DNA of 64,000 nucleotides from a virus. Under the pieces are notes generated by a model. That model searched no databases. It saw only the letters and a list, made by a program, of their open reading frames with translations, and was not told the DNA's origin. This document shows, piece by piece, positions 24,194-58,662 of the stretch. Both the position numbers and the translations under genes were made by a program. The first letter of the stretch is position 1, and each line of letters starts with the position of its first letter. Location of the stretch: IMG/VR virus record IMGVR_UViG_3300036770_002724, positions 1-64,000 of that record, one strand, 5' to 3'.

Positions 24194-24511
24194 ATGCCAA
24201 AAGCGCCTCCAGATCGGGAACGTCGCGTCGTGATGGCGAAGCGCGTGGCCGAAAAGTGGCTCCGCCGCACGGCCAAGGCGGAGTACCGTTTTGAGGTTTT
24301 GGCTGGGCCGACGGATCTCCGAAACATCCCCAACATGCTTCGGGCCTTTCGAGACGGGAAAGTTGCGATGAGGGGTATCCCTCGCATCTCCGATCTCGGG
24401 ATTCAGGAGCAGGGGGACACGCTCGCTCTATGGTCCAGAGATCGAAAGGCCGTCTTGGCTCTCAAGAACTGGTTTGAGGCGCGTGGTTTTGAGACCTCGG
24501 GAGTCTGGTAG
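24194..24511 (+). CDS. Small basic protein, probable virion/cargo
   Basis: KRVAEKWL motif; first gene after a TAA-N4-TCTATC site. Confidence 0.7.
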   Translation: MPKAPPDRERRVVMAKRVAEKWLRRTAKAEYRFEVLAGPTDLRNIPNMLRAFRDGKVAMRGIPRISDLGIQEQGDTLALWSRDRKAVLALKNWFEARGFETSGVW

Positions 24512-24927
24512 TGAACAGACGCTCTGCCTCCCATGTAGGGGGCTCCAAGTATCGGTATGCGTCCGAAGACCAAGAGCTTCGCGGACGTATCATCCGCCTG
24601 GCCTATGCTCGCCCTGAGCTAAGGTCACAGCTTCTACCGCTGGTTCTGGAGGGGCGCCCGGCCTCGGGCAAACAGGCTGACCTTCAGCTTCTCGCTGGTC
24701 GCGCTTGGACCCAAGGACAAGTGTACGGACCTCCCTACACGGATGTCAAGTACAGAACCAAACCCCCGACGAATCGCGGAACGAAGAAGTGCTGGTACAA
24801 GCTCCCCGAAGGAGAGCGTTCAGAGCGAAGTCGCTGTTACGTCAAACGGAACATCCCGAACTCGGGGAACAAGACCGAATACAACCGGAAGTGGCGACAG
24901 ATGAACCTGGAGCGGCGTAAGGGATAA
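24511..24927 (+). CDS. Small basic protein with LRxxIIRLAxxxPELRxxLLPL motif
   Basis: Stop/start overlap; motif shared with 63337..63693. Confidence 0.7.
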   Translation: MNRRSASHVGGSKYRYASEDQELRGRIIRLAYARPELRSQLLPLVLEGRPASGKQADLQLLAGRAWTQGQVYGPPYTDVKYRTKPPTNRGTKKCWYKLPEGERSERSRCYVKRNIPNSGNKTEYNRKWRQMNLERRKG

Positions 24928-24930
24928 CTT

Positions 24931-25617
24931 ATGGTCCTGTCAAGAGTCCAGACCCTATACACCTTCCGGTCGGCTTCCGGCGGAGTGGACTACTACTTCG
25001 ACATGACCGTGGACGCTCTCGGTCAAGTCGAAGCCAAGAACTTTCGGAGTCCTCTTGGGCTCATCCGCGACCCCGTTACCGGCTTGCCCAGGGCTGTCCT
25101 CGACGACATGCTGGACGCCCGCGAGATCGTCCGCCAGCTAGGAACTGAGACCAACGTCGCGAGCGGAACTCTCGTCTTCAACGGGGTCACTTCCGTCAAC
25201 GGTTCCATCTTGCCCGGAACCCTGAACAACACCAGCTACCGGGTGGCGTACACGACGCCTGACGGGACAGTCCTCCGCACGACCAACCAAACGACCACCA
25301 GCTTCACGGCGGTCGCTCCGACGACATACGGGACCGTAGCGGCTCCGATTTCTGTCCCCTACGTCGTCCTAGTCGCGACCCTTCAAGCAAGCACGACCAG
25401 CGGACTTCTCACGTTCATCCCGGCAGACAACAGCATCCGGAACGTCGCCTTCACCCAAGCGTTCACGACGGACGAATACCGGGTTGTCCTGACGCCTTCA
25501 GATTTCTTTGTCGCTCGGGTGACCAACAAGACCCGCTCCGGCTTTTCCGTCGAGCTAGGCTATACGCTGGGAGCAGCAGAGAGCGTGACCGTCGGTTACG
25601 ACGTGTTCGTGGGGTGA
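24931..25617 (+). CDS. Beta-rich virion structural protein
   Basis: Thr/Val-rich; C-terminal VAFTQAF..DEYRVVLTP domain similar to the end of the next gene. Confidence 0.65.
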   Translation: MVLSRVQTLYTFRSASGGVDYYFDMTVDALGQVEAKNFRSPLGLIRDPVTGLPRAVLDDMLDAREIVRQLGTETNVASGTLVFNGVTSVNGSILPGTLNNTSYRVAYTTPDGTVLRTTNQTTTSFTAVAPTTYGTVAAPISVPYVVLVATLQASTTSGLLTFIPADNSIRNVAFTQAFTTDEYRVVLTPSDFFVARVTNKTRSGFSVELGYTLGAAESVTVGYDVFVG

Positions 25618-25621
25618 ACCT

Positions 25622-26857: not shown

Positions 26858-26870
26858 AGCGAGGTCTAAC

Positions 26871-27467
26871 GTGTCGAACTCCAAGCTATTTGAGCGTTTC
26901 GCCCAAGAAGCCCCCAACTCGTTTTGGGAGGACATGGGGACTGCGTTCACCGTTGACTCGGCTATTGATACGGTTCTCCAAGCCAACACCCTTGAGGGTC
27001 CACGCGCGACTTCGGTACGGGCGCTTACTGACCGATCTGCGTCGGATGCCGTCTCTCTTCCCCTACCTTCAGGGACGCGGGTGAAGTTTGTCGCGAGTCT
27101 GGCCTCGGTCCTGAGCTACTCCGACATTCCTTCCGGGGACATGGAGGGGACCATCATCAAGGTCAAGACCGCCGAGGGGAAGATCACCCATCGGGAGGGC
27201 CGTGCTTTCGTCCTTTGGGATGACGGCAAGTTCCGCCCCGTGCTGGCCGAGCATCTTCGCCGGGCCTCTCCCCGGAAGCGCATGGCAACTGCGGTTCGCA
27301 TGACGGTCGCCAATCTGGGGGACATCTCAGGCATCTTCAAGGCTGCGAACGGGGATGAGCTGATCCACAAAGCGACTCGCGATCTCTGGTCGTTCCGCCA
27401 AGACAAGAACGGTTCCTTCGTTATTGAGCGACTGTTCGATGATGAGGGTAAGCCGCTGAAGGTGTGA
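26871..27467 (+). CDS. Hypothetical virion protein
   Basis: GTG with GAGGT SD; tight packing in the structural module. Confidence 0.7.
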   Translation: MSNSKLFERFAQEAPNSFWEDMGTAFTVDSAIDTVLQANTLEGPRATSVRALTDRSASDAVSLPLPSGTRVKFVASLASVLSYSDIPSGDMEGTIIKVKTAEGKITHREGRAFVLWDDGKFRPVLAEHLRRASPRKRMATAVRMTVANLGDISGIFKAANGDELIHKATRDLWSFRQDKNGSFVIERLFDDEGKPLKV

Positions 27468-27468
27468 T

Positions 27469-28443
27469 ATGACCTCCCCGTTCGCCAGGAAGATCGCCGC
27501 TCGCTATCAGGTTCGTCTGATCGCCCGGGAGGTCTATGCCGCTTCCCGACCGTTGCAGAGTCGGACTGCGGGCTTGCAGCATTTCACCGTCGATGTTCTT
27601 GAAGCCTTTGGTCAAGGGTTCGTGGAGCCTCTTTCCAAGGGTCGGATTGCAGCGTCTTTGGTCACCCGCAAGCTGAAAAACTTGGTGTCTCTTTTTTCCA
27701 AGGTGCCCCGGCTGTGGGGTCAGTTGAAGAAAACTCTCCTAAAGGACGCCCCTGACTGGGAGGGTGTCAAGAGCCTTCCTGCGATCATCAAGTGGCTCCC
27801 AAGCAAGATCCATCAACTCATGGTCGATGGGGCGAAGTACGCCTCTCGGTTCATTGATGCTCTGTTCAAGCGTTCGCCTTTCGACTTGTTGGCGGCGGGC
27901 TCGGACAGTCTGCTCTCTGTCAATGGTCTCCTGAATCGAATCCTCGATCATCTGAAGGCCAAGGCCCCCCAGCAGTTCAAGGTCTTTGCCTCCAAGGTAG
28001 GTGGCTACGTCGAGGGCAAAGTTCTTTCCGCAGCCGCTTGGGTCAAGGAGAGTTTCCCTGCACTGGTTGAGGTGGGCTCCAAGGTCTTGAACAACCCCCT
28101 TGTTATCTGGGCTCTCTACTGGTACATCTGGAATCGGGTTCAAGAGTTCGAGTGGGATGCCGCTTCGTTGGCGAAAGCTGCGGTCGGTGCCCTTACGTTT
28201 GAGGATCTATGGGCCTCCCTTCCGGGTTCCGCTATCGGTAAAGTCCTTACGGTCTTGACCGGAGGGGTTCTCGACACCTACGCCCTGCTGCCGTATGCGC
28301 TTTTGGCTCGGATTGCCTTTGCTCTGGCAAGTGGATACCTCCGCTGGAACGGCGGTAAGATCCTTCCTGACTGGGAGCGGCTGGAGTCGACCTTGGGCCT
28401 GAAACCAGACTTCTTTGAGTCTGCTGGTCTTCGATCCGTCTAG
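27469..28443 (+). CDS. Hypothetical protein with hydrophobic C-terminal half (possible membrane segments)
   Basis: N-terminal RKIAARY; LVIWALYWYIW and long apolar stretches. Confidence 0.7.
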   Translation: MTSPFARKIAARYQVRLIAREVYAASRPLQSRTAGLQHFTVDVLEAFGQGFVEPLSKGRIAASLVTRKLKNLVSLFSKVPRLWGQLKKTLLKDAPDWEGVKSLPAIIKWLPSKIHQLMVDGAKYASRFIDALFKRSPFDLLAAGSDSLLSVNGLLNRILDHLKAKAPQQFKVFASKVGGYVEGKVLSAAAWVKESFPALVEVGSKVLNNPLVIWALYWYIWNRVQEFEWDAASLAKAAVGALTFEDLWASLPGSAIGKVLTVLTGGVLDTYALLPYALLARIAFALASGYLRWNGGKILPDWERLESTLGLKPDFFESAGLRSV

Positions 28444-28516: not shown

Positions 28517-29164
28517 ATGTCCGCTGAACAAGACGAGACGAAAACGGTTCCTGGGGCTCTTGTGCCGCGTCGGTCGCGGATCAAGACGGCGGGCGAAGTC
28601 CGCTTCATCAAGGATCGAGGCGGGGACTCAAAGGAGTGGGGCTGGGGTTCTCCTGGCCCGTCGCAGCGGGAGCTATCCCCCGGATTTGAGTTCAACCCGA
28701 ATAACATCAAGCCTCTGGCGAAGACGCTGCGAGCTACCCTCATGGCTCTGGGCCACTCCTTGTCAGCGTACACCTTGTTCACTCGACTGAAGTCGGCCAC
28801 GGTATCGCCGGACGGGTCTCTGGGCGGCAAAGGCTACATCCAGAAGATTGCGGATATGCGCCGCCAGTACATGAACTGCGTCGAAGCCTTGTCTGCTCTC
28901 TCGGATACCCTCTATGATGAGATCCATGCTCCTCATTGGAGTCCGGTGATCCGCGATCAGGATCCTCGGGAGCGTGAGCAGGTTCTCGAGATTCTTGACG
29001 GCGTTGAGGAGATTCGCGACGACCCCGAGGAATGGGCCGAGGAAGAGGAACAGGAGCAGGTCGAGAAGCCCAAGAAGACCGCCCGCCGCAAAACCGCTTC
29101 CTTCAATCCGCACGCTAGGTTGGTCTCCAGAGTAGCCAGTCGTTATCTTGGTGAGGACGAGTGA
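28517..29164 (+). CDS. Hypothetical virion protein ending in RVASRYL
   Basis: GGAGG SD; acidic then basic C-terminus. Confidence 0.75.
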   Translation: MSAEQDETKTVPGALVPRRSRIKTAGEVRFIKDRGGDSKEWGWGSPGPSQRELSPGFEFNPNNIKPLAKTLRATLMALGHSLSAYTLFTRLKSATVSPDGSLGGKGYIQKIADMRRQYMNCVEALSALSDTLYDEIHAPHWSPVIRDQDPREREQVLEILDGVEEIRDDPEEWAEEEEQEQVEKPKKTARRKTASFNPHARLVSRVASRYLGEDE

Positions 29165-35282: not shown

Positions 35283-35676
35283 GTCAAGGGTACGTCGCCG
35301 TGCTCAGGAAGATTTCGGTCGGGAGATGCAGCAGCACATTTCCCGGTCCCTTCGGCATTTGATCCAAGCCCAAGAGATATGTCAGCGGATTGCACGGGAT
35401 GCGGATCCCATGAACCGCATTGAGGTTCGACGTGCAAGGGTCGCGAATCAGACGTTGAGCAGGGTGCGCTCGCTCATCGAACAGATTGGACCCTTGTCTC
35501 CGGGCTACGATAAGAGTGACCCCGACCTGACGCCCGAGACTACGAAGCGTCCGAGGCAGTCGGAAAAGCAAGCGTCACAACAGTCCGCAAAGCCGGTCAA
35601 GCGGGTGTTGTCATTCCAAGACCGGGTCCGGCAAGCCTTGGAGAAGATGAGGGAACAGGATGGCTCGGAACAATAA
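35275..35676 (+). CDS. Small basic hypothetical protein
   Basis: Overlaps both neighbours by a few nt. Confidence 0.6.
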   Translation: MTRSRVRRRAQEDFGREMQQHISRSLRHLIQAQEICQRIARDADPMNRIEVRRARVANQTLSRVRSLIEQIGPLSPGYDKSDPDLTPETTKRPRQSEKQASQQSAKPVKRVLSFQDRVRQALEKMREQDGSEQ

Positions 35677-37351
35677 TCCCGCTGATACGGTGAAGGTGGC
35701 GGAGATCCCCCCTCGTCCTAACGTCAAGGTAGGGAAGCCGGGTCAGGTCGTCACTACCGCCATGCGGATGAAGACGGCCTTTCCGACGGTCGGAGGCACC
35801 ACCCTGGGTTCTGGCGGCAACTTCTACTCGCCGGAGCTTTCGACCGACTTCCTTGAGCTTCCGCAGACCACCGACGAGCAGAGGAACTACTACAGGTTCT
35901 TCTATGACCACGACGAGTTCATCGGGCAGGCCATCGACCTGACCGCTGAACTTCCGTTGTCCAAGATCCGACTTCGGATGCCCGAGGCCAAGAACCGAGA
36001 GATCGCTGAACAGGCGATGCGGTTCTGTCAGCGGTGGTCCCGGAAAATCGGGCTCCTTCATCGGCTGATCTCCATCGTCCACGACTACTTTCTGGTCGGG
36101 GAAGCCTTCGTCTTTTGCGAGGACACCTCGCCAGATATGCCTCCCGACGTCCGGTCCTACGCAATCCGGGAGGTCAAGGAAGACGGCTCGACCGAAGAGA
36201 AGTGGCTCGACTACCCCGATGCAAACGAGCGTGCGGTTGCTTGGCTGAAAAAGAACTACCAGGGCTGGACGGCGGTTCGCGTCCTTCCACCTGAGCAGAT
36301 CCACATGGAGAGCTTCCCGTTCACGAACGAGAAGCTCATCGAACTGGTGGTGGACAGCAAGACCAAGGCTATCGTCCAGAAGGCGCAGCAGGGGGATCTT
36401 CGAGCGCAGCAGATCGTGGACTCCATGCCCCAGGAGATCGTCGAGGCTGTAATCAGCGGTCAGAACCTGCCCCTCAACACCGACCCCGATGCCGGGAGCT
36501 TCTGCTTTCATCTCGCCCGCAAGAAGTCTGACTACGAGCCCCGGGGAAAGAGCGTTCTACAGCGATGCCTTCGGACCCTGGTCTTTCGGGATAAGGTCCG
36601 TCAGGCTCTCACCAGCATCGCTTCCCGGCACATGACCCCGTTCCGGCTCATCTACGCGGAGGACATGGACGCCGAGCAGACCGAAGACCTCCGTGCCCAG
36701 GTTGACCTCGCCCTTCAGGATCCCGACTACTCCATCATCACCAACTTCCAAGTGAACTGGGAAGAGATGGGGGCCGACCAGCGTCTCCCGAACTGGGATT
36801 GGGTCTACGAGCAGACGAACAAGCAGCTTTACGCGGGCCTCGGTATGACAGAAAGCCTCCTCTCCGGCGAGAGCAGCTACTCAGGCGACCGGATTCACCT
36901 GGAGGTCATCAACACGCGGTTCATGCTTCTCCGCGAAGCTCTCCAAGACCTCGTCGAAGACTTCATGTTCAAGCCCATGTGCGCTCGCATGGGCTTCGTC
37001 GAGGAAGATGAGGACGGCAACCTCGAAGTGGTTTTCCCTCGACTGTCGTTCACCCGTCTGGCGCTTCGGGACAACCAGGAGACGTTCGACGCCCTGTTCA
37101 ACCTGTACCAGAAGGGCTCTCTGGACGTGGAGGTCATCCTCGACCTCCTGAACATCGACCCGCTGACGACCAAAGAAAAACTGGAAAAGGACATGCTCAC
37201 GCCGAATGACGCCCTTTTCAACGAGATCCTGCGGTCGGCGTACAGCGGGGTTGGAAACGCCCTTCCGGAGCAGACGGACATCATCGAACGGGCGGCGAAG
37301 GTCATGGGCCTGAAATACAAGCCCCCGGCTGAAGGCGGAGATCGTTTCTAG
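35660..37351 (+). CDS. Portal protein
   Basis: 563 aa, helical, follows TerL and precedes the protease/scaffold/MCP genes. Confidence 0.75.
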   Translation: MARNNNPADTVKVAEIPPRPNVKVGKPGQVVTTAMRMKTAFPTVGGTTLGSGGNFYSPELSTDFLELPQTTDEQRNYYRFFYDHDEFIGQAIDLTAELPLSKIRLRMPEAKNREIAEQAMRFCQRWSRKIGLLHRLISIVHDYFLVGEAFVFCEDTSPDMPPDVRSYAIREVKEDGSTEEKWLDYPDANERAVAWLKKNYQGWTAVRVLPPEQIHMESFPFTNEKLIELVVDSKTKAIVQKAQQGDLRAQQIVDSMPQEIVEAVISGQNLPLNTDPDAGSFCFHLARKKSDYEPRGKSVLQRCLRTLVFRDKVRQALTSIASRHMTPFRLIYAEDMDAEQTEDLRAQVDLALQDPDYSIITNFQVNWEEMGADQRLPNWDWVYEQTNKQLYAGLGMTESLLSGESSYSGDRIHLEVINTRFMLLREALQDLVEDFMFKPMCARMGFVEEDEDGNLEVVFPRLSFTRLALRDNQETFDALFNLYQKGSLDVEVILDLLNIDPLTTKEKLEKDMLTPNDALFNEILRSAYSGVGNALPEQTDIIERAAKVMGLKYKPPAEGGDRF

Positions 37352-37382: not shown

Positions 37383-38717
37383 ATGCACCCCAAAGCCTCA
37401 GTCGCCTTGATGAAGTTCCTATCCGGTGCTGCTCGACGGCTCGGAGTAGGCGATCACGCTTATGTCGTAGGGGGTGCCGTCCGGAACTACGTCCTCGGGG
37501 TTCCGATCAAGGACGTCGATCTGGTCATCGATCCCACCGTTCAGCCCGGTAAGGACTCGGCCTGGTTCGCGAAGCAGCTACAGAAGCTCATCCCCGCCCC
37601 GACCAGTCTCGTGACCAACAACTACGGGGTCGCCATCCTGTCGGTGAACGGCCCTTGGGTTCTTGGCGGTCACGACCTGGACGGGGAGAAGATCGAGATC
37701 GCAAATGCCCGCAGCGAGTCCTACGCTGAAGGGGGCTACAAGCCCGATCAAGTCGTTCCGGCCACGATCCAAGAAGACGTTTACCGCAGGGAGTTCACCT
37801 TCAACACCTTGCTGTGGCGGCTAAAGGATCTCGCGCAAGGGCCGGACAAGGCAGAGATCATTGACCTCACGGGTTGCGGGCTTCGCGACCTTGAGCGAGG
37901 GGTCATGGCTTGTCCCCGCGATCCCGATGAGGTGTTCGCGGATGACCCGAGCCGGATGATCCGGGCGGTCAAGTTTACCATCAAGTACGGGTTCAAGATC
38001 CCCCCGGACCTAGAAGCCTCGATTCGACGGAACGCTTCTCGACTTCGCCAGATTCCTCCCGGGCACATCACCAACATGCTCATCGAGACTTTCTTGCGGG
38101 ATCCGTCCGGCAAGAAGGCTCTGATGGAGATGGACCGTCTCGGGCTTCTCGCGGTCATCCGAGAGATCGCTCAGGATAACAAGTCTTTCCGACAGAGTCT
38201 CGCCAACTGGGCGGAGTCTGAGGCGAGCGTAGCCTTCCTCTTCGACCTGATGGATCTCGGTATGCCCGTGGGAAAGAAACTGACCTTCCTGTCCCCAGAG
38301 GATGTCTCCAGGGTTCGCGAGGTCACCTTCGACATGACTCCCGCGAAGGGTGAAGCCTACGTCTCCGTCCTCAAGCAGCCGGGTCGGGTTCTGGACTTCC
38401 CCTCGCTCATTCAGGAGTTCGATCTGAAGGGGCCGGGGGTTGGTGTTCTTACAGACGTTGCCCGCCGGTCCTTGCTCGAAGATCCTGACCTGATTGACGA
38501 CTCTCGGCGCTTCTCTGACCAAGTGCGTCAGAGACTCATGTCCAAGAGGGTTGCTTCGCGCGTTCTGGCTTCGGTTCGTCGTCCCTCGGTCGAGGAGAGC
38601 GATAGCCCCCGCGAGTACCTCGGCTCCCCGCTCTCGACACGCCCTGATTACGGGCGAGGTTCCTCTAGCCGGGTCGCTAGCCGGGTCGCTAGTCGATGGC
38701 TCGCGAGTAGGCGTTGA
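37383..38717 (+). CDS. CCA-adding enzyme / poly(A) polymerase family nucleotidyltransferase with basic RVASR tail
   Basis: VGGAVRN..KDVDL, ARSESY, EDVYRREFTFN, DDPSRMIRAVKF. Confidence 0.9.
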   Translation: MHPKASVALMKFLSGAARRLGVGDHAYVVGGAVRNYVLGVPIKDVDLVIDPTVQPGKDSAWFAKQLQKLIPAPTSLVTNNYGVAILSVNGPWVLGGHDLDGEKIEIANARSESYAEGGYKPDQVVPATIQEDVYRREFTFNTLLWRLKDLAQGPDKAEIIDLTGCGLRDLERGVMACPRDPDEVFADDPSRMIRAVKFTIKYGFKIPPDLEASIRRNASRLRQIPPGHITNMLIETFLRDPSGKKALMEMDRLGLLAVIREIAQDNKSFRQSLANWAESEASVAFLFDLMDLGMPVGKKLTFLSPEDVSRVREVTFDMTPAKGEAYVSVLKQPGRVLDFPSLIQEFDLKGPGVGVLTDVARRSLLEDPDLIDDSRRFSDQVRQRLMSKRVASRVLASVRRPSVEESDSPREYLGSPLSTRPDYGRGSSSRVASRVASRWLASRR

Positions 38718-38733
38718 GTATTCGAGGCGTGTC

Positions 38734-41700
38734 ATGTCTATCTGGTTGGAAGCCGCTCTGGACGAACTTCACGGACCCCTTTCCGACTGGGTTCACTATG
38801 GTCGTTCCGGTTCCAAGCGAGAACTGTTTGAGGCATACGACGGGCTTGCGCCTCAAGCGAAGATGGCTCTGGCAGGCGCGGTGAGAAAAGCGTTCGGAGG
38901 CTCCTCCAAGGCTATCATGTACCGACGGCTGAAATCCTCCGGAGAGGCTAGCCGGATGGGAGGGATGTCTCTCACAACAGCCCTTCCTGGCTACGTCGAG
39001 GCGGAGGCGTTCGAGGTTGAAGCCGATGACGTCCTCGTCCATCACGGTGTCCCCGGAACCCCGCTTAGTAGCAAAGCCTTCGGGCACGAGAAAGAGGTCA
39101 TCTTGAAGCCGACGGCGAACCCGAAGAGTCTAGGCCCGGTTCCGGCTAACAGGACTGCGGCCCGCTACAAGGATAAGAAGCAAGTCCCGAAGGCTGATGG
39201 GAAGGGAAAGACGACGGTCTACGAGTACAGCGACCGTCAGGTCGCCCTCCGAAATCGAGAGAAGGCCAAGCAGGTCGAGAAGATCCGAAGGTCCATCGGG
39301 GATCTGAGGGAGCAAGTCCGGAAAGACCTCAAGTCGAAAGACGAGCACACCCGGAACGTCGCCCTAGCTGTAGGTCTCCTGGACAAAACTTACGAGCGCG
39401 TCGGGAATGAGGATTCGGCCAAAGACGGTCACGTCGGGGTCACCGGCTGGAAGGTGAAGCACCTCACGGTTGGCAAGGACAAGATCACGATCAAGTACGT
39501 CGGCAAGTCGGGGGTCAAGCACGAGAAGGTCGTCGACAACGCTGCCTCGGTTGCCGCGATCAAGAAGGCTATCGAAGGTAAGAAGGATGACGACCTCATC
39601 TGCGGGTGCTCTGCCGAGGACGTGAACGAATACTTGGAACCCTTCGACATCACCGCTAAAGACCTTCGGGGCTACCACGCCAACACCGAGATGCAGACCC
39701 GGCTGAAGCGGATTCGATCCGAGAACGGGGCGCTCCCCAAGAATCGGGAAGAGCGGAAGGAAACGCTCAAGGAGGAGTTCGATCAAGCCCTGGAGGAGAC
39801 GGCGGAGGCGGTCGGTCACGAACCCTCGACCTTGCGTTCCCAGTACCTCGTCCCCGGACTCGAAGACGAGTTTATGAAGGACGGTGAGGTGAGCCAGACG
39901 CTCGACAAGCGGGGCTCATCCGTGAAGGTCGCTCTACGCGAAGGCTCCGGTCTGTCGCGGATCGCGGGAAGGATTCGGACGGTCCCTACCCCAGATTCCC
40001 TTGTACCTTCGTCTGTTCGCTCTTTTTTCAACCGGAATCAAGCGGTATTTGATCGGTATCCCGACTTGTGGCTGAAGGGCGGGGCGGCGCGCGGGACTTT
40101 TGTTTCTTGGGCGTTTCTCAAGCTATTCGGAGCTAGGGCGGAGCCCAAAGAGGCTAGGGACTTCGATTTCGTCACTTTCAGTCAAGAGGGTCCTTGGGAA
40201 GTCGAGGGTGAATCCGTCGAATTCGCATCCTCCGTTTCGGCTTACATGGGGTCGAGAGACTTCGGGGTGAACGAGGTTCTCCTTCGTCCGGACAGGATGG
40301 TTTTTTCGGACAAGGCTTGGAGGGATGTTCTCCGGCTTGAGATTTCCCCTCGTTCTGTCATCGAAGAAGACCGCTACGGGCGGACGGGGCTTCGCGCGCT
40401 CTTGTTCGTTCTGGAGCTAGGATTTAGCCCAGGGAAGTTCATCGCGGAAGAGATCAAGAAGGCGGATACTTGGAATCTTCTTCTCCATCTATTCAAAGCA
40501 TACGAGAAGGGGATAGAGGACGATTACTTCCTCTACATCAAGAAGTCTGGGGGGGTGCTAACGGAACGGATAGCTACGGTAGACGACTGGCTGATCGAGC
40601 TAGTTGGAGCAACCCCGCATTTTTCGTTGCGGCCTTACCATAAGGCTATCTTGGATAAGGCTAAAGAAATGTCGAATCTCGGGAAAGACCCGTTCGATTC
40701 GATACCCCGGTCGGCTTCCGAGTCTCTTCTTCAACATTGGTTCGCCTCCTCTTTTGACCGGGTCGCCACGAAGACCGAGGGGGAGAAGGAAAACGAAGAG
40801 GTCGAGCGGCTGGTCAAGCCAGCCCCCAAGACCAAGCCCCCGCGTCAAGACCTTCGCCGCAATCGGATGAAGGTTGAGGACGAGGACGTTGAGCGTCCAA
40901 GTGCGGAGTCGGATCGGGATCTCTCCCTGAACTACAAGAAGGTCGCCGCCGAATTGACCGCTCGTTGGTACGGGGTCATCCCGCCTCGCCCCAAGCCTCC
41001 GAAGCCGCCCCCTCTACCGCCGAGGGATCCGATCCCCGGATGGAACCCTGTTACCCTTGATCTTGCCCAGAAAAAGTCCCGCAAGCCGGGCGACGTGTGG
41101 CGATCCAAGACCCCGGGTCGTTGGCTCGCGATGAATTCGGAGGAGACTGTACATTCCTTTGAGGACAGATCGAAGGCAGAGTCTTTCTCCCAGAACGGGA
41201 AAAGGGCATCGAACGCGGAGTGGTTGGCTCTACGGTTCGCAGATGCCCCCTTGAATCCTACGGACCACAGACCCGGTGACGTTTGGGAATCTGAACGTAC
41301 TCCTGGTCGCTGGTTAGGGAAGAACCCCGAAGGTGTGTCGAAGTCTTTTGACACGAAGGAAGAGGCTCAATCCTTCGCGAAATCCGAAGCGACCTCAGAG
41401 TCCGAAGCCCCAGAAGACGGTGACCTTCAGACCAAGGATACGACTCCCCAAGAGCCGCCGCCGCCGCCGAGCCCAGAGGAGTCGATCTCTCAGATGGTGA
41501 AATCCCTCTCAAACCTAGAGGACGAGCAGATCCAATCGACTCTCGAAAGTTTCTCAGACGCGGAACGCGCCAAGATTGCAGAGACCTTTGCCCAAGAGAG
41601 CGAGACGCTTCGACGTGCGTTTGAGGATGGTACGCTCCTCGGCTCCGACAAGGATCTCAAAGAGGTCTCGGAGGCGTTTGAGAACCCTTCCTCTTCTGTG

Positions 41701-42771
41701 GAGCCTTCCCTGCTGGGTAAGCGACTCGCACAAGCCCTCTTTGCTAAGACCGTTCTGGCCAACCCTCTCCAAGTCGGGAGCCCCCTCAGTGCCGCCCCCT
41801 TGGCTGACGACCAGCTATCCAAGCGACGTGTGGACTCCATGAAGCACTTTGGCCAGATGTCCCCCGCGATTCGCTCGGAGGCCATGAAGAACATCCACCA
41901 GGAGATGACTCAGATCCCGGACGATAAGAGCGAAGCCTCGGAGGCTAAAAAAGCTGACCTCCAAGCTCGCCTCGTTGGACTCACCCTTGCCGCTGCCATG
42001 AAAGATGAACCTTGCTCGGCCAAGGTCGAGGGCGAATGGGGAGAAGAGGACAAAGAGCTACACCCCCCTATCCCTCCAGCTACCGTGAAGCTGTTGAAAG
42101 CCTTGGACAAGCAGGGTCAGTCTAGCTTGGTTCTTGATGCCGTCTCCGCGCGCGGGACTCCGAAAGGTCGTGAAGCCTTCGTGAAGGCGCTGGAGTCTAT
42201 GGGGGAGGATGGACTCCTCAGTTTTGCCAAGAGCGTGGATGCCTTTTCGGACATGGTGGATGTCCTGGAAGACTCCGATACGACCTCTCTGGTTCGCCTA
42301 AAGACCCAAGCGGTCCTCCAGGATCTCATCGTCAACCACTTGATGTTCGGAGACATGTTCACCCAAGACGCTCTCGACGAGTCCGATGAGCGCCGTCCCA
42401 AGAAACGTAAGCAGAAGTCTGACAAGATGAAGTCTGAGCCGAGCCCAAGGACCTTGAGGAAGATCAAGGATCTAAACAGTTGCATCAGGGACAAGGGCTT
42501 CACCAGCGAATGTGAGGTTCTTTCTCTGGATGTCGAAAAGACCGCCCTTGATGATCTTTTCAAGGACATTCTGCGTGACATCGGCAAGATCCCCAAAGGC
42601 AGTGAGGCCAGGGCTCAGATGGAAGCGTTCCAGCAGGAAGAGAACGTGGAGGACGCCCAAAAAATCTTGAAGACGCTGTTCGTACAGACGGGCGACCTCC
42701 CGTCTGGGGCACGGTCTCAGCCCACTAGAACCGCAGGACTAGAAGAACTGTGGGGCGATTATCTCCAATAA
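38734..42771 (+). CDS. Multidomain polyprotein-like ORF: ART-like domain, type IB topoisomerase, nucleotidyltransferase-like domain, tandem repeats, helical tail
   Basis: ART: MYR/SLTT/EKEVIL; Topo IB: RVGN, GKSG, KDLR, GH, QYL; NTase: LKGGAAR, RDFDF, RDFGVNEV; ATG 38734 with GAGG. Confidence 0.8.
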   Translation: MSIWLEAALDELHGPLSDWVHYGRSGSKRELFEAYDGLAPQAKMALAGAVRKAFGGSSKAIMYRRLKSSGEASRMGGMSLTTALPGYVEAEAFEVEADDVLVHHGVPGTPLSSKAFGHEKEVILKPTANPKSLGPVPANRTAARYKDKKQVPKADGKGKTTVYEYSDRQVALRNREKAKQVEKIRRSIGDLREQVRKDLKSKDEHTRNVALAVGLLDKTYERVGNEDSAKDGHVGVTGWKVKHLTVGKDKITIKYVGKSGVKHEKVVDNAASVAAIKKAIEGKKDDDLICGCSAEDVNEYLEPFDITAKDLRGYHANTEMQTRLKRIRSENGALPKNREERKETLKEEFDQALEETAEAVGHEPSTLRSQYLVPGLEDEFMKDGEVSQTLDKRGSSVKVALREGSGLSRIAGRIRTVPTPDSLVPSSVRSFFNRNQAVFDRYPDLWLKGGAARGTFVSWAFLKLFGARAEPKEARDFDFVTFSQEGPWEVEGESVEFASSVSAYMGSRDFGVNEVLLRPDRMVFSDKAWRDVLRLEISPRSVIEEDRYGRTGLRALLFVLELGFSPGKFIAEEIKKADTWNLLLHLFKAYEKGIEDDYFLYIKKSGGVLTERIATVDDWLIELVGATPHFSLRPYHKAILDKAKEMSNLGKDPFDSIPRSASESLLQHWFASSFDRVATKTEGEKENEEVERLVKPAPKTKPPRQDLRRNRMKVEDEDVERPSAESDRDLSLNYKKVAAELTARWYGVIPPRPKPPKPPPLPPRDPIPGWNPVTLDLAQKKSRKPGDVWRSKTPGRWLAMNSEETVHSFEDRSKAESFSQNGKRASNAEWLALRFADAPLNPTDHRPGDVWESERTPGRWLGKNPEGVSKSFDTKEEAQSFAKSEATSESEAPEDGDLQTKDTTPQEPPPPPSPEESISQMVKSLSNLEDEQIQSTLESFSDAERAKIAETFAQESETLRRAFEDGTLLGSDKDLKEVSEAFENPSSSVEPSLLGKRLAQALFAKTVLANPLQVGSPLSAAPLADDQLSKRRVDSMKHFGQMSPAIRSEAMKNIHQEMTQIPDDKSEASEAKKADLQARLVGLTLAAAMKDEPCSAKVEGEWGEEDKELHPPIPPATVKLLKALDKQGQSSLVLDAVSARGTPKGREAFVKALESMGEDGLLSFAKSVDAFSDMVDVLEDSDTTSLVRLKTQAVLQDLIVNHLMFGDMFTQDALDESDERRPKKRKQKSDKMKSEPSPRTLRKIKDLNSCIRDKGFTSECEVLSLDVEKTALDDLFKDILRDIGKIPKGSEARAQMEAFQQEENVEDAQKILKTLFVQTGDLPSGARSQPTRTAGLEELWGDYLQ

Positions 42772-42904
42772 AATGAGGGCTTGGGGGCGGGTACGATGGG
42801 CGTACTTGGTTTCCCGGTTTTCAATCTATACCAAGGGCGTACTAGCAGAGGATGCCTTTGCGCCTTCGGGTCGCAGTCCTCGGCCCAGCCCTAAAAAGGA
42901 GTCG

Positions 42905-43932: not shown

Positions 43933-44529
43933 ATGACCAAGCGTCTGTCGCGAAAAGTTGCCGTGGTGAACTACCAGAACCGGGCAAAGGATTTTGCCAT
44001 CGGTGACATGGTTTATCCTTACACCCAAGTCGGGGCTGGGATGAACCCCACGGCGTATTCGGGGCGTATCGTTGCCGTCTGGCCCGCTATCGGGATGGTG
44101 GACGTGGAGTTTCCCACGGGTAACACCCGGTTCCCGGTCGAAGAGCTACAAAAGACCCATTCCCAGGATGCTGTTCCGCCGAAGCCGACGGCGGATACTG
44201 TTCCGGGAGGGGCGGGTTCGGAGCCTGTCTCAGCGGGTCCGAAGGATGCGGATCCTGGTCAGAAGACCGCTTCTCGGATTGCATCTCGGGTGGCTCAGGC
44301 TTACGTCAAGAGGGCTCTCTACTGGGGGGCCTCTGACCGGCACTACCGGGCCACTCGGTCGGAGCTTGATCAGAACAGCTTTTGCTGTCCTCGATGTGAC
44401 AAGGAAAGCCTACTCCAAAAGGCTGTCTACAAGCGGGAGGATGGTCAGAGTGTCCGTCTCCTCGCCTGCAAGAAATGCCTGTTCCTGATCAAGCCCGACC
44501 AGATTCTCAACCACCCGACGGATGAATAG
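43933..44529 (+). CDS. Hypothetical protein with C-terminal Zn ribbon
   Basis: CPRC...CKKC; internal SRIASRVAQAY. Confidence 0.75.
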   Translation: MTKRLSRKVAVVNYQNRAKDFAIGDMVYPYTQVGAGMNPTAYSGRIVAVWPAIGMVDVEFPTGNTRFPVEELQKTHSQDAVPPKPTADTVPGGAGSEPVSAGPKDADPGQKTASRIASRVAQAYVKRALYWGASDRHYRATRSELDQNSFCCPRCDKESLLQKAVYKREDGQSVRLLACKKCLFLIKPDQILNHPTDE

Positions 44530-47280: not shown

Positions 47281-47328
47281 GGGCGAATGGAACGCAACGC
47301 AGTCGCCATTCATGCAAAGGAGAATCAA

Positions 47329-49203
47329 ATGAGCATCAGGAAGCGCATGACTTGGGCGGGTCGCAAGGCGTCGAACCCTCCCGCTATGCCTGGCTACGGA
47401 ACCGAGGATCAGGATCACCCGGCGCACTACCCGGACCCTGCCGCTGACCTCTACGAGAACGGTGACACGGACTCGTGGGCGGAGACCCCGAAGCCCCCGC
47501 CCTACCCGCAGGGCAATCCCCCGGCGATGCCGGGTTACGACACTGAGGATCAGGATCACCCGGCTTATGTCCAGCAGCCGCGCGTTCCGAAGTCGGCGGC
47601 TCTTCGCGCCCGTATTGAGCGCAAGGCGGCGAAGTGCGCTCGCATCGCGCAGTCGATGCTCGGCCCCCAAGCCCCGATGGCGATGGTCGAGGACCAGTCG
47701 CTCGCCCTCATGGATCTCCCTGACTCGGAGATTGACGCGACCCTCGCTCGGATGAGCGGTGGGATGCTCATGGCCGAGGAGCACGAGGGTGGCGATGAAG
47801 AGGCCATGCTCGCGGAGATGATGGCTGAAGAGGGTGTTGAGGCCGAGGAGCACGAGGGTGGTGACGAAGAGGCCATGCTCGCGGAGATGATGGAAGAGGC
47901 CGGAGACGAGATGCTCGCGGGTCGTACTTGGGGCAACCCTTTCCCTCGTCGGACGCCCGATGACAACGTCCCTTATAACAAGCATCCCGGTTCGCCGCCC
48001 GCAGGGGCGAATGGTTCTCCGGAGCGGAAGAAGTACAACCAGTGGTTCCGTGAGAACGTCTGCCCGGATCACAAGACGAACTGCGGTATGCCGAAGAAGA
48101 AGACCGCTGAAGATGCCATGCTCGCTCAGATGATGATCGAGGAAGGCATGATGGCGGGCGATGAGGAAGGCATGGAGGCCGGAGACGACGGTCTCATGGC
48201 GTCCATGCTCGCGGAGATTGAGGCTCTTCAGGCTGAGAACCAGGCTCTCAAGGCGGGCAGGCGGGCCAATCAGAATGACCCCAAGGGTCCGACCCTTGGT
48301 GCCAAGTCCAAGTCGGTTGAACAGGCCGAGGCCGAGGCTATGGCCTTGGCCGATGAAGAGTTCAAGACCGCCGAGGACGAGTTGGACGCCGAAGAGGAGT
48401 CCATGCTCGCGGAGATGGTGAAGCAGGAGGCCAAGAAGGCTGCTCTTCGCCGTCGCGCCAAGAAGTCCGAGGAGGTCGAGTCCGAGGAGGTCGAGTCCGA
48501 GGACGAGGTCGAGGCCGAGGAGGAGGCCCCCAAGGCTTCCAAGAAGAAGGCCAAGAAGTCCGAGGAGGTCGAGTCCGAGGACGAGCATGAGGCCGAGGAC
48601 GAGGAGGCCCCCAAGGCTTCCAAGAAGAAGGCCAAGTCCTCGATGGGTTGTGGTGACTCTCCGGGCGCGATGTTCGCTATCGACGAGGAGGCCAACGACC
48701 CGATGGGTCTGATGGGCGAGGCCGAGATCCACGAGGGAGATGAGATGCTCCTGGCTGAAATCTTCGGCAAGAAGGCAGCCGAGGATGAGGTCGAGGCCGA
48801 GGACGAGGAGGCCCCCAAGGCTTCCAAGAAGAAGGCCAAGAAGTCCGAGGATGAGGTCGAGGCTGAAGAGGAAGAGGCGTCCGAGGAGGAAGTCGCTTCC
48901 AAGAAGGCGGCTCTCCGTGCGGCCCTCCTGCGTCGGGCAAAGGCCAAGAAGTCCGAGGATGAGGTCGAGGCCGAGGATGAGGTCGAGGCCGAGGATGAGG
49001 TCGAGGCCGAAGAGGCCAAGAAGGAGGCTCGCCGCCTAGCGGCGCGTCGCCAAGAGGCTCTCCGCCCGCAGCCCCGTAAGCCGAATCACGGGATCAAGAC
49101 CATTGGCGGGATGTCGCGTTCTGCCGGTTCGCGGAGCGAGGTCGGTGACCTGGAGAATCTCTGGGAGACCGCCCCGGACGTGAGCGCCGTCTTCGGCAAG
49201 TGA
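47329..49203 (+). CDS. Capsid scaffolding protein (acidic, internally repetitive)
   Basis: Between protease and MCP; Glu/Ala/Lys repeats; AAGGAG SD before ATG 47329. Confidence 0.75.
   Translation: MSIRKRMTWAGRKASNPPAMPGYGTEDQDHPAHYPDPAADLYENGDTDSWAETPKPPPYPQGNPPAMPGYDTEDQDHPAYVQQPRVPKSAALRARIERKAAKCARIAQSMLGPQAPMAMVEDQSLALMDLPDSEIDATLARMSGGMLMAEEHEGGDEEAMLAEMMAEEGVEAEEHEGGDEEAMLAEMMEEAGDEMLAGRTWGNPFPRRTPDDNVPYNKHPGSPPAGANGSPERKKYNQWFRENVCPDHKTNCGMPKKKTAEDAMLAQMMIEEGMMAGDEEGMEAGDDGLMASMLAEIEALQAENQALKAGRRANQNDPKGPTLGAKSKSVEQAEAEAMALADEEFKTAEDELDAEEESMLAEMVKQEAKKAALRRRAKKSEEVESEEVESEDEVEAEEEAPKASKKKAKKSEEVESEDEHEAEDEEAPKASKKKAKSSMGCGDSPGAMFAIDEEANDPMGLMGEAEIHEGDEMLLAEIFGKKAAEDEVEAEDEEAPKASKKKAKKSEDEVEAEEEEASEEEVASKKAALRAALLRRAKAKKSEDEVEAEDEVEAEDEVEAEEAKKEARRLAARRQEALRPQPRKPNHGIKTIGGMSRSAGSRSEVGDLENLWETAPDVSAVFGK
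48460..49020 (+). repeat. Coding tandem repeats in scaffold (EDEVEAE / EEAPKASKKKAKKS units)
   Basis: Repeated GAGGTCGAGGCCGAGGA and GCCCCCAAGGCTTCCAAGAAGAAGGCCAAG blocks, all in frame. Confidence 0.9.
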
Positions 49204-50138: not shown

Positions 50139-51011
50139 ATGGCAGTAGATAACGCCATCAAGCAGCGGATCATCGGTGAGTACATCAAGACCGCCGCTGG
50201 TCGTGCAAAGCTCGCTGCGTCGATGACGCAGCCCCTGCGGACTCGTCGTGACTACGCGGCGGTGGGTCGTAAGACCTTCCTCGTCGAGCAGCTTCCCGAC
50301 GGTGCCCTTCCGATTTACGACAAGGATCCGGACGTCACGGCGTTCGTGGTGGGTGAGGAAGGCGAGAACATCGTCGGCATCACCAAGCCCCGGCGTGTGA
50401 TCTTCCCGCTGTTCGAGATTGCCTCGAACCCGGAGATCCCGCTGACCCAGATCAAGGAGCGCCGCTTCGACCTCATCGAGCGTGCCCAGGATCTCGCGAA
50501 GGCGCAGATCCAGGCTGCCGAGGACGAGCGGGTTTTCGCGATTCTGGACGCTATCGCCACGGCGGGTTTCGACTCGCTCCCGGCGCAGCTAAACGCGGAC
50601 ATCCCGGTTGTGGCTCCGATCAGCGGTGCCGTCCTCGCGGACGCCTTCGCTCTGATCGAGCGTCACGATCTCCGGGTTGCTCGCGTGTACATGAACGCTC
50701 GCGACTACGCGGACCTCCGCAAGTTCGGGCGTGACATCCTGGACATCGAGACCCAGGCGACCCTGCTCAAGACCGGCCTTATGGCGACCCTCTGGGGCTC
50801 GCAGGTCATCACGAGCCGTCTGGTCCCGGTGGGCACGGTGTACCTGTGCTGCGAACCGGAACACTTCGGTCGCATCCCCGTCCGTACGGAACTGACTGTT
50901 CTTTCGGCGGATGACCCGAAGGCTCGGACCATCGGGTTTTCCTGCTTCGAGAACCTGGGCATCGGGGCGTACAACCCCCGTGGCCTGGCGCGTCTGACCG
51001 TGACCCGCTAG
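50139..51011 (+). CDS. Major capsid protein (HK97-like fold)
   Basis: Highly biased codons, AAGGAG SD, followed by a strong terminator; AQIQAAEDERVF long helix, VYMNARDYADL, LWGSQVITSRLVP. Confidence 0.85.
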   Translation: MAVDNAIKQRIIGEYIKTAAGRAKLAASMTQPLRTRRDYAAVGRKTFLVEQLPDGALPIYDKDPDVTAFVVGEEGENIVGITKPRRVIFPLFEIASNPEIPLTQIKERRFDLIERAQDLAKAQIQAAEDERVFAILDAIATAGFDSLPAQLNADIPVVAPISGAVLADAFALIERHDLRVARVYMNARDYADLRKFGRDILDIETQATLLKTGLMATLWGSQVITSRLVPVGTVYLCCEPEHFGRIPVRTELTVLSADDPKARTIGFSCFENLGIGAYNPRGLARLTVTR

Positions 51012-51039
51012 TCAAGCCCGCGTAATCGCTGGACAATAG

Positions 51040-51085
51040 ACGCCTAGCGTTCCCCTCAAAAGGAACGCTAGGCGTTTTTTGTTTG
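51040..51085 (+). terminator. Rho-independent terminator after MCP
   Basis: 14-bp stem ACGCCTAGCGTTCC / GGAACGCTAGGCGT followed by TTTTTGTTT. Confidence 0.92.
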
Positions 51086-51166
51086 TCCGGCCCTCCCGCC
51101 TACCCTCTTCGGTTCTTGTGTGTACGATTGTTGTTGATACCGCGCATCTGGTCGTATACTGTTGTG

Positions 51167-56750: not shown

Positions 56751-56797
56751 CCTGTCCCGCTAGCCTATCTATCGGGGGGCTCTCATAGGGAGCCCCC

Positions 56798-57184
56798 ATG
56801 CCTACCAAAAAAGCCAATAGCCAAGCTGCCTGGGCGTTGTTGACCGAGGGGGTCACTTCCGCTCGTCTGGAGGCCCATCGTCTCCAGCACATGATCAACC
56901 GCGCTTCTCAGCTTGTGGAGAAGTCCGAGCAGCGGGACCATTTGTACGAAGTCGCCGGGGATGTGATCGTCGCTCTCCCTGAGCGGCTCAACCACTTGAT
57001 CACCGACCTTGATCGAACGTCTTTGGCCTTGTCTCGCATGGGGCAAGACTTCCTGGAGTCTCGGCTGTCACTTTCCGATAAGAATCTTGTTGAGGAGTCG
57101 ATCTCCTCTGCGTTCGGGAAGTCGCGACCCAAGGAGTCTCATGTCGCTCGACGGGTTGCCCGGCGCTATCTCGGGAAGCTGTAG
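56798..57184 (+). CDS. Small helical protein ending in RRVARRYL
   Basis: GGGAG SD within a hairpin; follows TAG-N4-TCTATC. Confidence 0.75.
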   Translation: MPTKKANSQAAWALLTEGVTSARLEAHRLQHMINRASQLVEKSEQRDHLYEVAGDVIVALPERLNHLITDLDRTSLALSRMGQDFLESRLSLSDKNLVEESISSAFGKSRPKESHVARRVARRYLGKL

Positions 57185-57186
57185 CC

Positions 57187-58662
57187 ATGATCCGACGTGC
57201 CGATCTCAACCCCCCGCTAGGCTCACCAGGGGGGCCATGCCGGGTCGTTCAGCGTATCCATGAACGGGTCAGGAGTCCCGTTCTGAGGGAACAACTGACT
57301 CAAGAGGTCGAGGATGGCTCTGAACTTGACAACCCTTCAGCCGCCAAGGTGTACGATGTCAATACCGAGCGGCTCGAAGGTTTCTTCAAGCAGGTAATCA
57401 TCGGGCCGCACGCGGCCTACCGGATGGATCTGCGAACGGTCTCTGTTCCGGTCATCAAGCAGGCTGTCCAGAACTTCCTCAAGGCGATGTCCGACGCAAA
57501 GTCTCGGAACGCCCCAGAGTACCACCGCAACAAGGCCGAATTGGAACGGGGTCGTACCGTTCGGTGGGATGACCCAAAGCTCAAGGTCACCATTGTCCTT
57601 TCGCTCGCTGGTCAAGGGGTTGCCAAGATCGTCACGACTTACTGGACGGGCCGAAAAGATCCTTCCCCTCCCCGTGCTCCGTGCTCCATCAAGACCGCCC
57701 TCGGTTATCGTGAGCCCGCGAGCGCCCTTCCCGGAGCCCAGACGTTCGTCAACAATCCAGATGGTGAGCAGCGGCGAGAAGTCCCCAGTGGTTCGGTCGC
57801 CCCAAAGCCGCGTTCTCGCAACTTCAAGCAGCCCGCTTACAACGGGCCAGGTTCTTCAGGATCTTCGCCCGACGGAAAGTCGTTCAGTCAGGACAAGCCT
57901 CGGACCCTCGGGATGCCGGGGGAGGAATACGGGTCGCCGTACATTGGACCTCTTCAGGGTGGGCGTAAGCGCCGGACGATGACGGCAGACTTCCTCTACG
58001 AGAAGCGTCCACCGGACATGGACCCGGAGTCGAAGTTCGACCGGGCGACTTCTCCGCTGACTTGGCCTCATGGCGAACCGGGGCAGACGCTCGACATCAC
58101 CGAGATCACGGACAATCCGGGTTCTGCCAAGGTCATCCCCGAAGGCAAGGGCTTCGTCAACCGGCAAGCGTACAAGATCGCAGACATTGAGTCCCTTTGC
58201 GACTCGGACCTTCGCGGCAAAGCCCAACAGGTGAAAGTCCGTTTGCGGCGTGTGGATTCGCGCGCGATGTCCTGGACCTTTGAGGCGACGGGATCGAAGG
58301 GTCCTTATCAAATCAAGATCAAAGCGTTGCCGAAGCGGTCTGACGTGAAAGACCCCAAGAAGGTAGATGTCCTGGTCTCCTGCTCCTGCCCGTTTTGGCA
58401 GTGGCAGGGGCCGGAGCATTGGGCGACCCAACACGACTACCTGTATGGTCGTCCTCGGGGCACGGCGTCTCGACCTGAAATCAAGGATGCCAACAAGGAG
58501 CATGGAGCCTGCAAACACGTTCTTGCCGCTCTCCATGCTATCAAAGACGGTGACATTCCGGGACGTACCAAAAAGCTGGCCTCTCTGGGTTCCGTGTGGC
58601 GGGACGAGGGTTTCATCCAGCGGATTGCGCGGCGGTATCTTGAGGGCAAAGGAGACTACTGA
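57187..58662 (+). CDS. Modular protein: putative RelE/DUF4258-like RNase domain plus SWIM Zn finger, ending in RIARRYL
   Basis: PHAAYRMDLR...KIVTTYW; SCSCP...CKH. Confidence 0.65.
   Translation: MIRRADLNPPLGSPGGPCRVVQRIHERVRSPVLREQLTQEVEDGSELDNPSAAKVYDVNTERLEGFFKQVIIGPHAAYRMDLRTVSVPVIKQAVQNFLKAMSDAKSRNAPEYHRNKAELERGRTVRWDDPKLKVTIVLSLAGQGVAKIVTTYWTGRKDPSPPRAPCSIKTALGYREPASALPGAQTFVNNPDGEQRREVPSGSVAPKPRSRNFKQPAYNGPGSSGSSPDGKSFSQDKPRTLGMPGEEYGSPYIGPLQGGRKRRTMTADFLYEKRPPDMDPESKFDRATSPLTWPHGEPGQTLDITEITDNPGSAKVIPEGKGFVNRQAYKIADIESLCDSDLRGKAQQVKVRLRRVDSRAMSWTFEATGSKGPYQIKIKALPKRSDVKDPKKVDVLVSCSCPFWQWQGPEHWATQHDYLYGRPRGTASRPEIKDANKEHGACKHVLAALHAIKDGDIPGRTKKLASLGSVWRDEGFIQRIARRYLEGKGDY

Follow-up and report, generated by a model that had tools for sequence, protein, structure and literature searches.

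A short basic helical motif recurs on unrelated proteins of uncultured half-megabase phages and is a candidate address tag for the phage head

In bacteriophage T4, a portable capsid-targeting sequence (CTS) is carried by the internal proteins IPI, IPII, IPIII and Alt, as described in passages of two papers (PMC9024508; PMC3012670), and in phage P1 a reporter enters the head when it carries no more of DarB than its first 30 residues (PMC9024508). Here we describe a seven-residue basic motif, R[VI]A.[RK][YW]L in its strict form, on unrelated proteins encoded in a stretch of 64,000 nucleotides of viral DNA (positions 1 to 64,000 of the IMG/VR record IMGVR_UViG_3300036770_002724; hereafter the window) and in related phages. 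An initial annotation of the window, made from its letters alone, had regarded this motif, hereafter the tag, as a candidate address for cargo of the capsid. The motif is real and under selection as a peptide, and we tentatively propose that it may dock enzymes to a common component of the prohead and thereby pack them into the phage head. By analogy with T4, it would be a tag of a large clade of uncultured half-megabase phages, with a comparable function and a different sequence; among the papers available for searching, none contains the motif strings looked for.

The likeness to T4 lies in a short peptide common to unrelated proteins that are encoded with the head genes, the T4 cargo being injected enzymes and counter-defence factors. 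The T4 peptide, however, is strictly N-terminal, ~10 residues long, acidic or neutral, and cut after Glu by the prohead protease, whereas the tag is basic, has another sequence, stands at either end of proteins or in linkers, and has a function that we infer here. Since sequence, charge and positional rule differ, the tag is not a member of the T4 CTS family, and the initial annotation, which had likened it to the T4 peptide in function only, was right that the sequences are unlike. In P1, as proposed here, a terminal signal loads large enzymes during head morphogenesis, and the P1 cargo defeats host defences at entry; the Dar proteins, however, have no common consensus (PMC9024508), whereas the tag is one consensus across dozens of proteins of an entire clade. 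The polyvalent proteins of Iyer, Burroughs, Anand, de Souza and Aravind (2017, PMC5512222) are, in passages of that paper, giant multi-enzyme proteins encoded beside the portal gene and predicted to be packaged and injected, with modules that include 2H phosphoesterase, GNAT, nucleotidyltransferase and peptidase. The same passages contain no short motif shared among the modules or stand-alone proteins, and mention topoisomerase IB once. The CCA-type and topoisomerase proteins of the window and the fused forms in its relatives fit the polyvalent architecture, their packaging being a prediction in our case.

Two further systems use a short peptide at a protein end. Encapsulins load cargo through a peptide that sits on a flexible linker, usually at the C-terminal end of unrelated enzymes, and binds the inner face of an HK97-fold shell. 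The tag is likewise a short terminal peptide on a flexible linker of unrelated enzymes; the encapsulin consensus, however, is rich in Gly, Ser and Leu rather than basic and aromatic, encapsulins have no scaffold, portal or DNA, and capsid binding of the tag is a candidate only. In P22 gp8, the 80alpha scaffold and SaPI1 CpmB, a short basic terminal helix carried by these non-homologous proteins binds the procapsid interior, but that helix belongs to scaffolds that set the capsid size and not to enzymes. The scaffold of the phage described here has a different conserved motif at its C-terminal end.

The window is the first 64 kb of a contig of 139,036 bp (60% G+C; completeness ~26% by CheckV) that is a fragment of an uncultured phage of roughly 0.5 Mb. 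Its major head protein (50139-51011) shows 87-93% identity to its counterparts in uncultured phages of 435-618 kb, 50% to that in the jumbo Tunturiibacter phage Tunturi_5 and 38% to that in Bacillus phage G. All nine stretches listed in the initial annotation translate exactly as claimed, each in the frame of a long plus-strand open reading frame (ORF), and five of them contain strict copies, starting at 24242, 29129, 38682, 57152 and 58621, which are the sole matches in the six-frame translation of the whole contig. When the residues of each of the 61 window proteins were permuted, 0.005 copies per shuffle were expected under the strict pattern and 0.034 under a pattern obtained independently from relatives, [RK][VI]A.[RK][YWF][LIM], against 5 observed under either. 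None of the five strict copies is more than 20 residues away from a protein end, a zone that holds 12% of residues; four start 10-13 residues ahead of the stop codon and one is at the N-terminal end. All five fall at 24-59 kb, in the neighbourhood of the packaging and head genes (the block from the large terminase to portal and capsid). No match occurs at 1-24 kb, in line with the earlier remark that the replication proteins are free of the tag; this replication and recombination block encodes clamp-loader subunits, ribonucleotide reductase, a RecD2-type helicase, RecA and an SMC/RecF-type ATPase followed by a metallophosphoesterase, the last two of which we read as an SbcCD-like pair.

Our sample of relatives consisted of 114 loci around portal or capsid genes from related IMG/VR contigs and parts of four near-complete genomes, the related genomes being read in part. 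The 114 loci yielded 59 matches, all but one of them (58) on the gene strand. Over 1.8 Mb of the contig and related contigs together, long ORFs contain 68 distinct matches versus one for the reversed peptide, a control identical to the motif in composition. A degenerate DNA pattern for the motif matches at 5-10 places in each of five clade genomes versus 0-2 for its control, and has no match in the complete genome of either Tunturi_5 or phage G. The regular expressions used for these tallies were partly shaped by the data, a shaping that has no bearing on the reversed-peptide, frame and shuffle controls. Because the codons for the same residues vary freely among copies, conservation is at the level of the peptide and not of the DNA; a DNA-level signal such as a promoter, terminator or repeat is ruled out by this free variation and by the occurrence of copies at both gene ends. 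Hidden homology among the carriers was also considered and rejected. As the initial annotation had stated, the carriers share nothing else: the best local alignments found by blastp are the tags themselves, all at E > 0.09.

The copies recur at equivalent places in orthologous proteins. The 105-amino-acid (aa) protein with the N-terminal strict copy has an orthologue in L007 that retains the tag at its N-terminal end, and orthologues of the 215-aa protein in L003 and L005 have it 12-13 residues before the stop, and about half of the 14 orthologues retain a recognisable form. The remaining four copies of the initial list are degenerate, and three of the four have a canonical or conserved counterpart at the same place in relatives. 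For RKIAARYQ, the orthologue of the 324-aa protein (L004, 2422-3300) has a canonical copy at residue 14; KRVASRVL, in which Val replaces the aromatic residue, is the orthologue of the canonical tag in the linker behind the CCA module of relatives; and the counterpart of NRTAARYK is a conserved RVAA[RK]Y[KQ] ~30 residues before the topoisomerase domain. SRIASRVAQAY is a conserved internal family variant, R-V-A-x-A-[YF]-V, in which positions 5 and 7 are Ala and Val, in ~37 orthologues. At a tenth, decayed site, 40936-40971, relatives have a canonical copy with D-L-S-x-N-Y-K just before it. Within families, most orthologues keep the tag, with drift. Table 1 lists the copies in the window together with the other features discussed here; the gene calls are simple ORF choices, and for N-terminal carriers the true start codon may be a few residues away from the one chosen.

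Table 1. Tag copies, their carriers and selected head genes of the window, with coordinates in the window
Feature	Position	Strand	Remarks
N-terminal strict copy KRVAEKWL	24239..24262	+	105-aa protein 24194-24511; residues 16-23 (first ATG) or 3-10 (ATG at 24233)
26-residue tag copy	24577..24654	+	138-aa protein 24511-24927, adjoins a carrier of the seven-residue tag
Degenerate N-terminal copy RKIAARYQ	27487..27510	+	324-aa protein 27469-28443
C-terminal strict copy SRVASRYL	29126..29149	+	11 residues before stop of 215-aa protein 28517-29164
Large terminase (TerL)	33146-35014	+	
Portal protein	35660..37351	+	phrog_16240, E 1e-27
CCA-adding/poly(A)-polymerase-type nucleotidyltransferase	37383..38717	+	Directly after portal; Pfam PF01743 (E 3e-17), PF12627
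Degenerate copy KRVASRVL	38544..38567	+	~130 residues past the CCA RNA-binding domain
Tandem one-and-a-half tag	38667..38702	+	C-terminal end of CCA enzyme; strict copy starts at 38682, 11 residues before stop
1345-aa multi-domain protein	38734..42771	+	Topoisomerase IB core at residues 173-366; Pfam PF01028, E 1e-28; two degenerate tag copies
Degenerate copy NRTAARYK	39148..39171	+	~30 residues ahead of topoisomerase IB domain
Decayed tag	40936..40971	+	3-residue insertion; residues 735-746 of 1345-aa protein; absent from initial annotation
367-aa head-core protein	42773-43876		Match with position 5 relaxed
198-aa head-core protein	43933-44529		Match with position 5 relaxed
Internal tag-like helix SRIASRVAQAY	44272..44304	+	In 198-aa head-module protein
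Prohead protease	within 44539-47280	+	
Acidic scaffold-like protein	47287..49203	+	Between protease and capsid genes; repeated acidic amphipathic motifs; one tag-like R-I-A-x-x-M-L helix; match with position 5 relaxed
Major head (capsid) protein	50139..51011	+	Clade marker; phrog_2522, E 2e-48; match with position 5 relaxed
C-terminal strict copy RRVARRYL	57149..57172	+	10 residues before stop of 128-aa helical protein 56798-57184
C-terminal strict copy QRIARRYL	58618..58641	+	13 residues before stop of 491-aa SWIM-finger protein 57187-58662
26-residue tag copy	63346-63423		

The anatomy of the motif was defined by relaxing one position at a time. Arg is preferred over Lys at the first position, Val far over Leu or Ile at the second, Ala is invariant at the third and the fourth is free (Ser, Ala or His); then follow Arg, far preferred over Lys, Tyr over Trp and Phe, and Leu. 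We counted 81 distinct instances, of which 31 begin 9-17 residues ahead of the stop, 19 have their first position at residues 4-17 of the protein and 31 are internal, mostly in giant proteins. The initial annotation had described the copies as mostly terminal, which is so for the five strict copies of the window, whereas many copies of relatives are internal, in the linkers of giant proteins. Ser, Gly, Ala, Arg and Pro abound in the 15 residues ahead of C-terminal copies, and the linker before the motif is a Gly/Ser segment rich in insertions and deletions. In the family of the 128-aa protein (alignment A1, 20 sequences), the order is a conserved helical body, such an indel-rich linker, the motif and a variable tail; the AlphaFold2 model of the window member (mean predicted local distance difference test score, pLDDT, 85.7) shows a helical hairpin, a low-confidence linker at residues 107-114 and a separate motif helix at 115-127. 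The hairpin is generic and has no informative match in PDB. The hydrophobic moment of the copies is 0.64-0.94, and together with the modelled helix this bears out the earlier description of the motif as a short amphipathic helix.

The motif is freely placed. SWIM-domain proteins have it at the C-terminal end (window, L074, L121, L126) or at the N-terminal end (L061), and two proteins (L086, L129) have it at both ends. It is thus a portable, position-independent, helix-forming short linear motif on a flexible tether. Because it has these properties, and in addition a small residue that never varies and hydrophobic and basic faces that are conserved, it is very likely a peptide that docks to one protein partner.

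The carriers in the window are a CCA-type enzyme, a topoisomerase IB protein, a SWIM-finger protein and four proteins of no recognisable family. The CCA-type enzyme has the head and neck domains of the class II family, and its PDB matches to poly(A) polymerases and CCA enzymes (E 2.5e-16 to 3.4e-07 over the 17 listed), like those to Pfam, fall within residues 22-274; its tags, at residues 389-396 and 430-440, therefore lie outside the recognisable fold, as had been proposed. For the SWIM protein, we found no DUF4258 or RelE-like RNase domain in Pfam at E <= 0.01, nothing in the ESM Atlas and no sequence match in PDB. In relatives, the carriers include stand-alone topoisomerase IB, a 2H protein resembling the CPD domain of tRNA ligase, an RNA-repair phosphatase of the HAD_SAK_1 type, C39-like and lethal-factor-like peptidases and a DUF3293/SAM-lyase-like protein. 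We read these functions as being of a counter-defence or early-acting kind.

The portal gene is followed by 37383-38717 and then 38734-42771 in the window, and the same order holds in relatives, where a single protein of 1,800-2,500 residues, encoded directly after the portal, unites 2H, CCA, topoisomerase IB and GNAT modules and has tag copies in the linkers between them. Thus, the relatives have at least two enzyme domains in one polypeptide, and the gene stands among virion genes beside the portal, as in polyvalent proteins. The CCA and 1345-aa proteins align to segments of this polyprotein in L003, L004, L005 and L035, so that one gene in relatives corresponds to two genes here (37383-42771), and the CCA enzyme is a split-off first module. 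Its alignment to relatives ends at the conserved linker tag, ~40 residues before its own tandem C-terminal tag. The split-off enzyme has thus acquired the tandem tag at its new C-terminal end, and the tags that remain inside the second gene have decayed. A frameshift or assembly error was considered as the cause of the split and rejected; because the upstream part of the overlapping frame has no homology, the split looks genuine.

How the tag would work can be pictured as follows. The motif is a two-turn amphipathic helix with a basic and a hydrophobic face, flexibly tethered at the N-terminal end, at the C-terminal end or in linkers between modules; a common component of the assembling prohead would bind it, the acidic scaffold core being the first candidate. 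The carriers would in this way be enclosed in the capsid as an enzyme kit that enters the next host together with the DNA; such a kit would contain tRNA- and RNA-repair enzymes, topoisomerase IB, peptidases, the SAM-lyase-like protein and SWIM proteins. We look for the partner in the prohead because of the gene context, the polyvalent architecture, the presence of counter-defence or early-acting enzymes among the carriers, and the phyletic range that the tag shares with the 198-aa head protein, both of which clade genomes have and Tunturi_5 and phage G lack.

Of the head proteins, the scaffold core would be our first choice, and the clade-specific 198-aa and 367-aa head proteins, the portal and the protease would be alternatives. 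Asp and Glu make up 24-28% of the scaffold in the seven orthologues measured, and its tag-like R-I-A-x-x-M-L copy recurs in scaffold orthologues. The exact acidic M-L-A-E-M repeat is present in at least three copies in only 2 other loci, and looser acidic amphipathic variants are present in all scaffolds inspected; that the M-L-A-E-M repeats might be a conserved receptor stays an idea, and they are a candidate only. When position 5 of the motif is relaxed, extra matches in the window appear only in four head-core proteins (Table 1), giving nine in all versus 0.54 expected. In the AlphaFold2 model of the 198-aa protein (m926a914b0aec), the motif is part of a helix at residues 112-129 that lies between a beta-barrel and a zinc-ribbon-like domain; a search of BFVD gave no informative match for this protein. 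Separately, the scaffold-like proteins of L043 (7221-9032), L047 (7166-9091) and L059 (7394-9091) contain paired EF-hand-like loops (D-x-D-x-D-G), which the window scaffold does not have.

Several observations weigh against packing into the head. Within orthologous families, other segments surpass the tag in conservation, and some members have lost it. The flanks of the copies inspected contain no consistent protease site or flanking residue. The nearest isolates, Tunturi_5 and phage G, have no tag, and the members of the clade are all uncultured; because phage G is without the tag, its particle proteome is not usable for the carriers. Phage G has only its portal, protease and capsid proteins in common with the clade, and Tunturi_5 only these three and a SWIM segment. 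Moreover, the tag is not confined to the head module as the initial annotation had supposed: in the complete relative G004, four of nine true pattern hits are near head genes and five are elsewhere, and a variant N-terminal copy of the contig itself lies beyond the window, at 123.8 kb, where it adjoins a glycosyltransferase-methyltransferase protein and an NAD-dependent DNA ligase. Finally, carriers flank a gene for a phage chaperonin of the Cpn60/GroEL type in two relatives. Taking both sides together, we regard loading into the head through a common prohead component as the best of the readings considered, a serious possibility that falls short of being probable.

These last points bear on the alternative that the tag docks its carriers to a common partner outside the capsid, such as a hub that joins the RNA-repair and counter-defence enzymes in a single complex, the phage chaperonin or a host protein encountered after infection, which is possible, though on balance we doubt it. 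Many carriers are RNA-repair enzymes that are found elsewhere as "Swiss army knife" multi-domain proteins (CCA enzyme, 2H/CPD, HAD_SAK_1), the majority of the G004 hits are outside the head module, and the chaperonin flanked by carriers in G001 and G004 is encoded in all four near-complete relatives. However, the strict copies of the window are all in the packaging and head block, and a multi-enzyme carrier directly follows the portal in every relative examined. The adjacency to the chaperonin is that of one syntenic region in two genomes and is absent in G002, and we know of no need of GroEL-type chaperonins for a sequence-specific tag. The chaperonin sites flanked by carriers are at 5364-6974 of L118 (G004) and at 204.5-206.1 kb of G001, and we found no chaperonin in the 139-kb contig. 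As to the neighbourhood of the 123.8-kb copy, the contig encodes a 1304-aa protein with glycosyltransferase family 2 and FkbM methyltransferase domains at 119804-123718.

It is unlikely that the tag is recognised or cleaved by the prohead protease, or by some other processing enzyme, so that the giant protein would be cut into modules and the ends of small proteins trimmed. The internal copies do lie in the inter-domain linkers of giant proteins, a conserved A/G-x-E stands ~10 residues past an internal copy, matching the terminal offset of 9-17 residues, and the T4 targeting peptide is both address and protease substrate (PMC9024508, PMC3012670). Against this, the scaffold, which must be degraded, has no strict copy; it is hard to see what small proteins would gain from the loss of 5-12 terminal residues if the peptide were not an address as well; a cleavage site with six positions defined over two helical turns would be unusual; and the motif is adjoined by no consistently conserved residue. 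The specificity of the prohead protease is not predictable because it matches no Pfam family. By analogy with T4, recognition by a protease could coexist with a role as address. A degron for Clp, considered apart from this, is unlikely: ClpP (PF00574) was not found in the contig or in the four near-complete relatives (ClpX and Lon were not searched), and the variable residues after the motif also speak against it.

Still less probable is a small arginine-rich helix that binds nucleic acid, either on enzymes acting on RNA and DNA or as an anchor to packaged DNA. The two conserved basic residues, the basic flanks and the many carriers that act on nucleic acids (CCA enzyme, topoisomerase IB, RNA-repair enzymes) would suit it, but the most invariant positions are Val, Ala, the aromatic residue and Leu, with Ala invariant, which suggests tight packing on a protein surface, and peptidases, the SAM-lyase-like protein and small helical proteins are tagged as well. 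Arginine-rich motifs also usually tolerate much more sequence variation. Most remote is a membrane-targeting amphipathic helix as in MinD or FtsA, or else a compositional or DNA-level artefact: the motif is terminal, basic and amphipathic in a genome of 60% G+C rich in Arg and Ala, but its sequence is far too strictly defined for lipid binding, and an artefact, compositional or other, is refuted by the reversed-peptide control, by non-coding frames and shuffles with almost no matches, and by the free variation of codons.

If the tag is indeed a capsid address, it would give a simple sequence rule that predicts which proteins huge phages carry into the cell, proteins otherwise invisible without virion proteomics, which is out of reach for uncultured phages. 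Phages of half a megabase would then deliver ready-made enzymes of tRNA repair and DNA topology at entry, before gene expression, which bears on surviving host anticodon nucleases and other first-line defences, and a seven-residue tag working at either end would serve as a tool for loading foreign proteins into capsids. If the partner is a different one, the motif would still mark a previously undescribed interaction hub of dozens of proteins in an abundant clade of environmental phages.

A second portable tag, unrelated to the first and ~26 residues long, was found in the same genomes, with the pattern L-R-S-K-hydrophobic-I-R-L-A ... P-x-L-R ... L-L-P-L-L. It stands at the N-terminal end, at the C-terminal end or inside unrelated proteins, with at least nine copies in the contig, of which two are in the window and others at 68-76 kb, and with 17 copies in the related loci, all on the gene strand. 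Genes with the 26-residue or the seven-residue tag sit side by side, and in one domain family the domain is preceded by the 26-residue tag in one genome and followed by the seven-residue tag in another (51% identity, E 1e-58). A clade-wide modular address code of at least two unrelated peptides, which would load a swappable kit of enzymes for tRNA repair, DNA topology, peptide cleavage and other counter-defence into the capsid for injection with the DNA, and in which the basic helix would dock to acidic motifs of the scaffold or to clade-specific head proteins with a tag-like helix of their own, is conceivable, and we consider it a rather speculative extension of the capsid-loading proposal.

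All window genes are on the plus strand, and a few have features of their own. The protease gene (44539-47280) is split by an intein-like insert at about residues 196-611 (Cys 196, Asn-Cys 611/612), and its flanks match the head maturation protease of Tunturi_5 in two pieces, residues 55-187 and 613-741. Directly 3' of the capsid gene, 51083-53122 has LAGLIDADG and HNH endonuclease matches together with DNA-methyltransferase-like pieces, and it may be another intein or a gene laden with homing endonucleases. At the very start of the contig (window 1-1389), a protein with collagen-triple-helix repeats is encoded.

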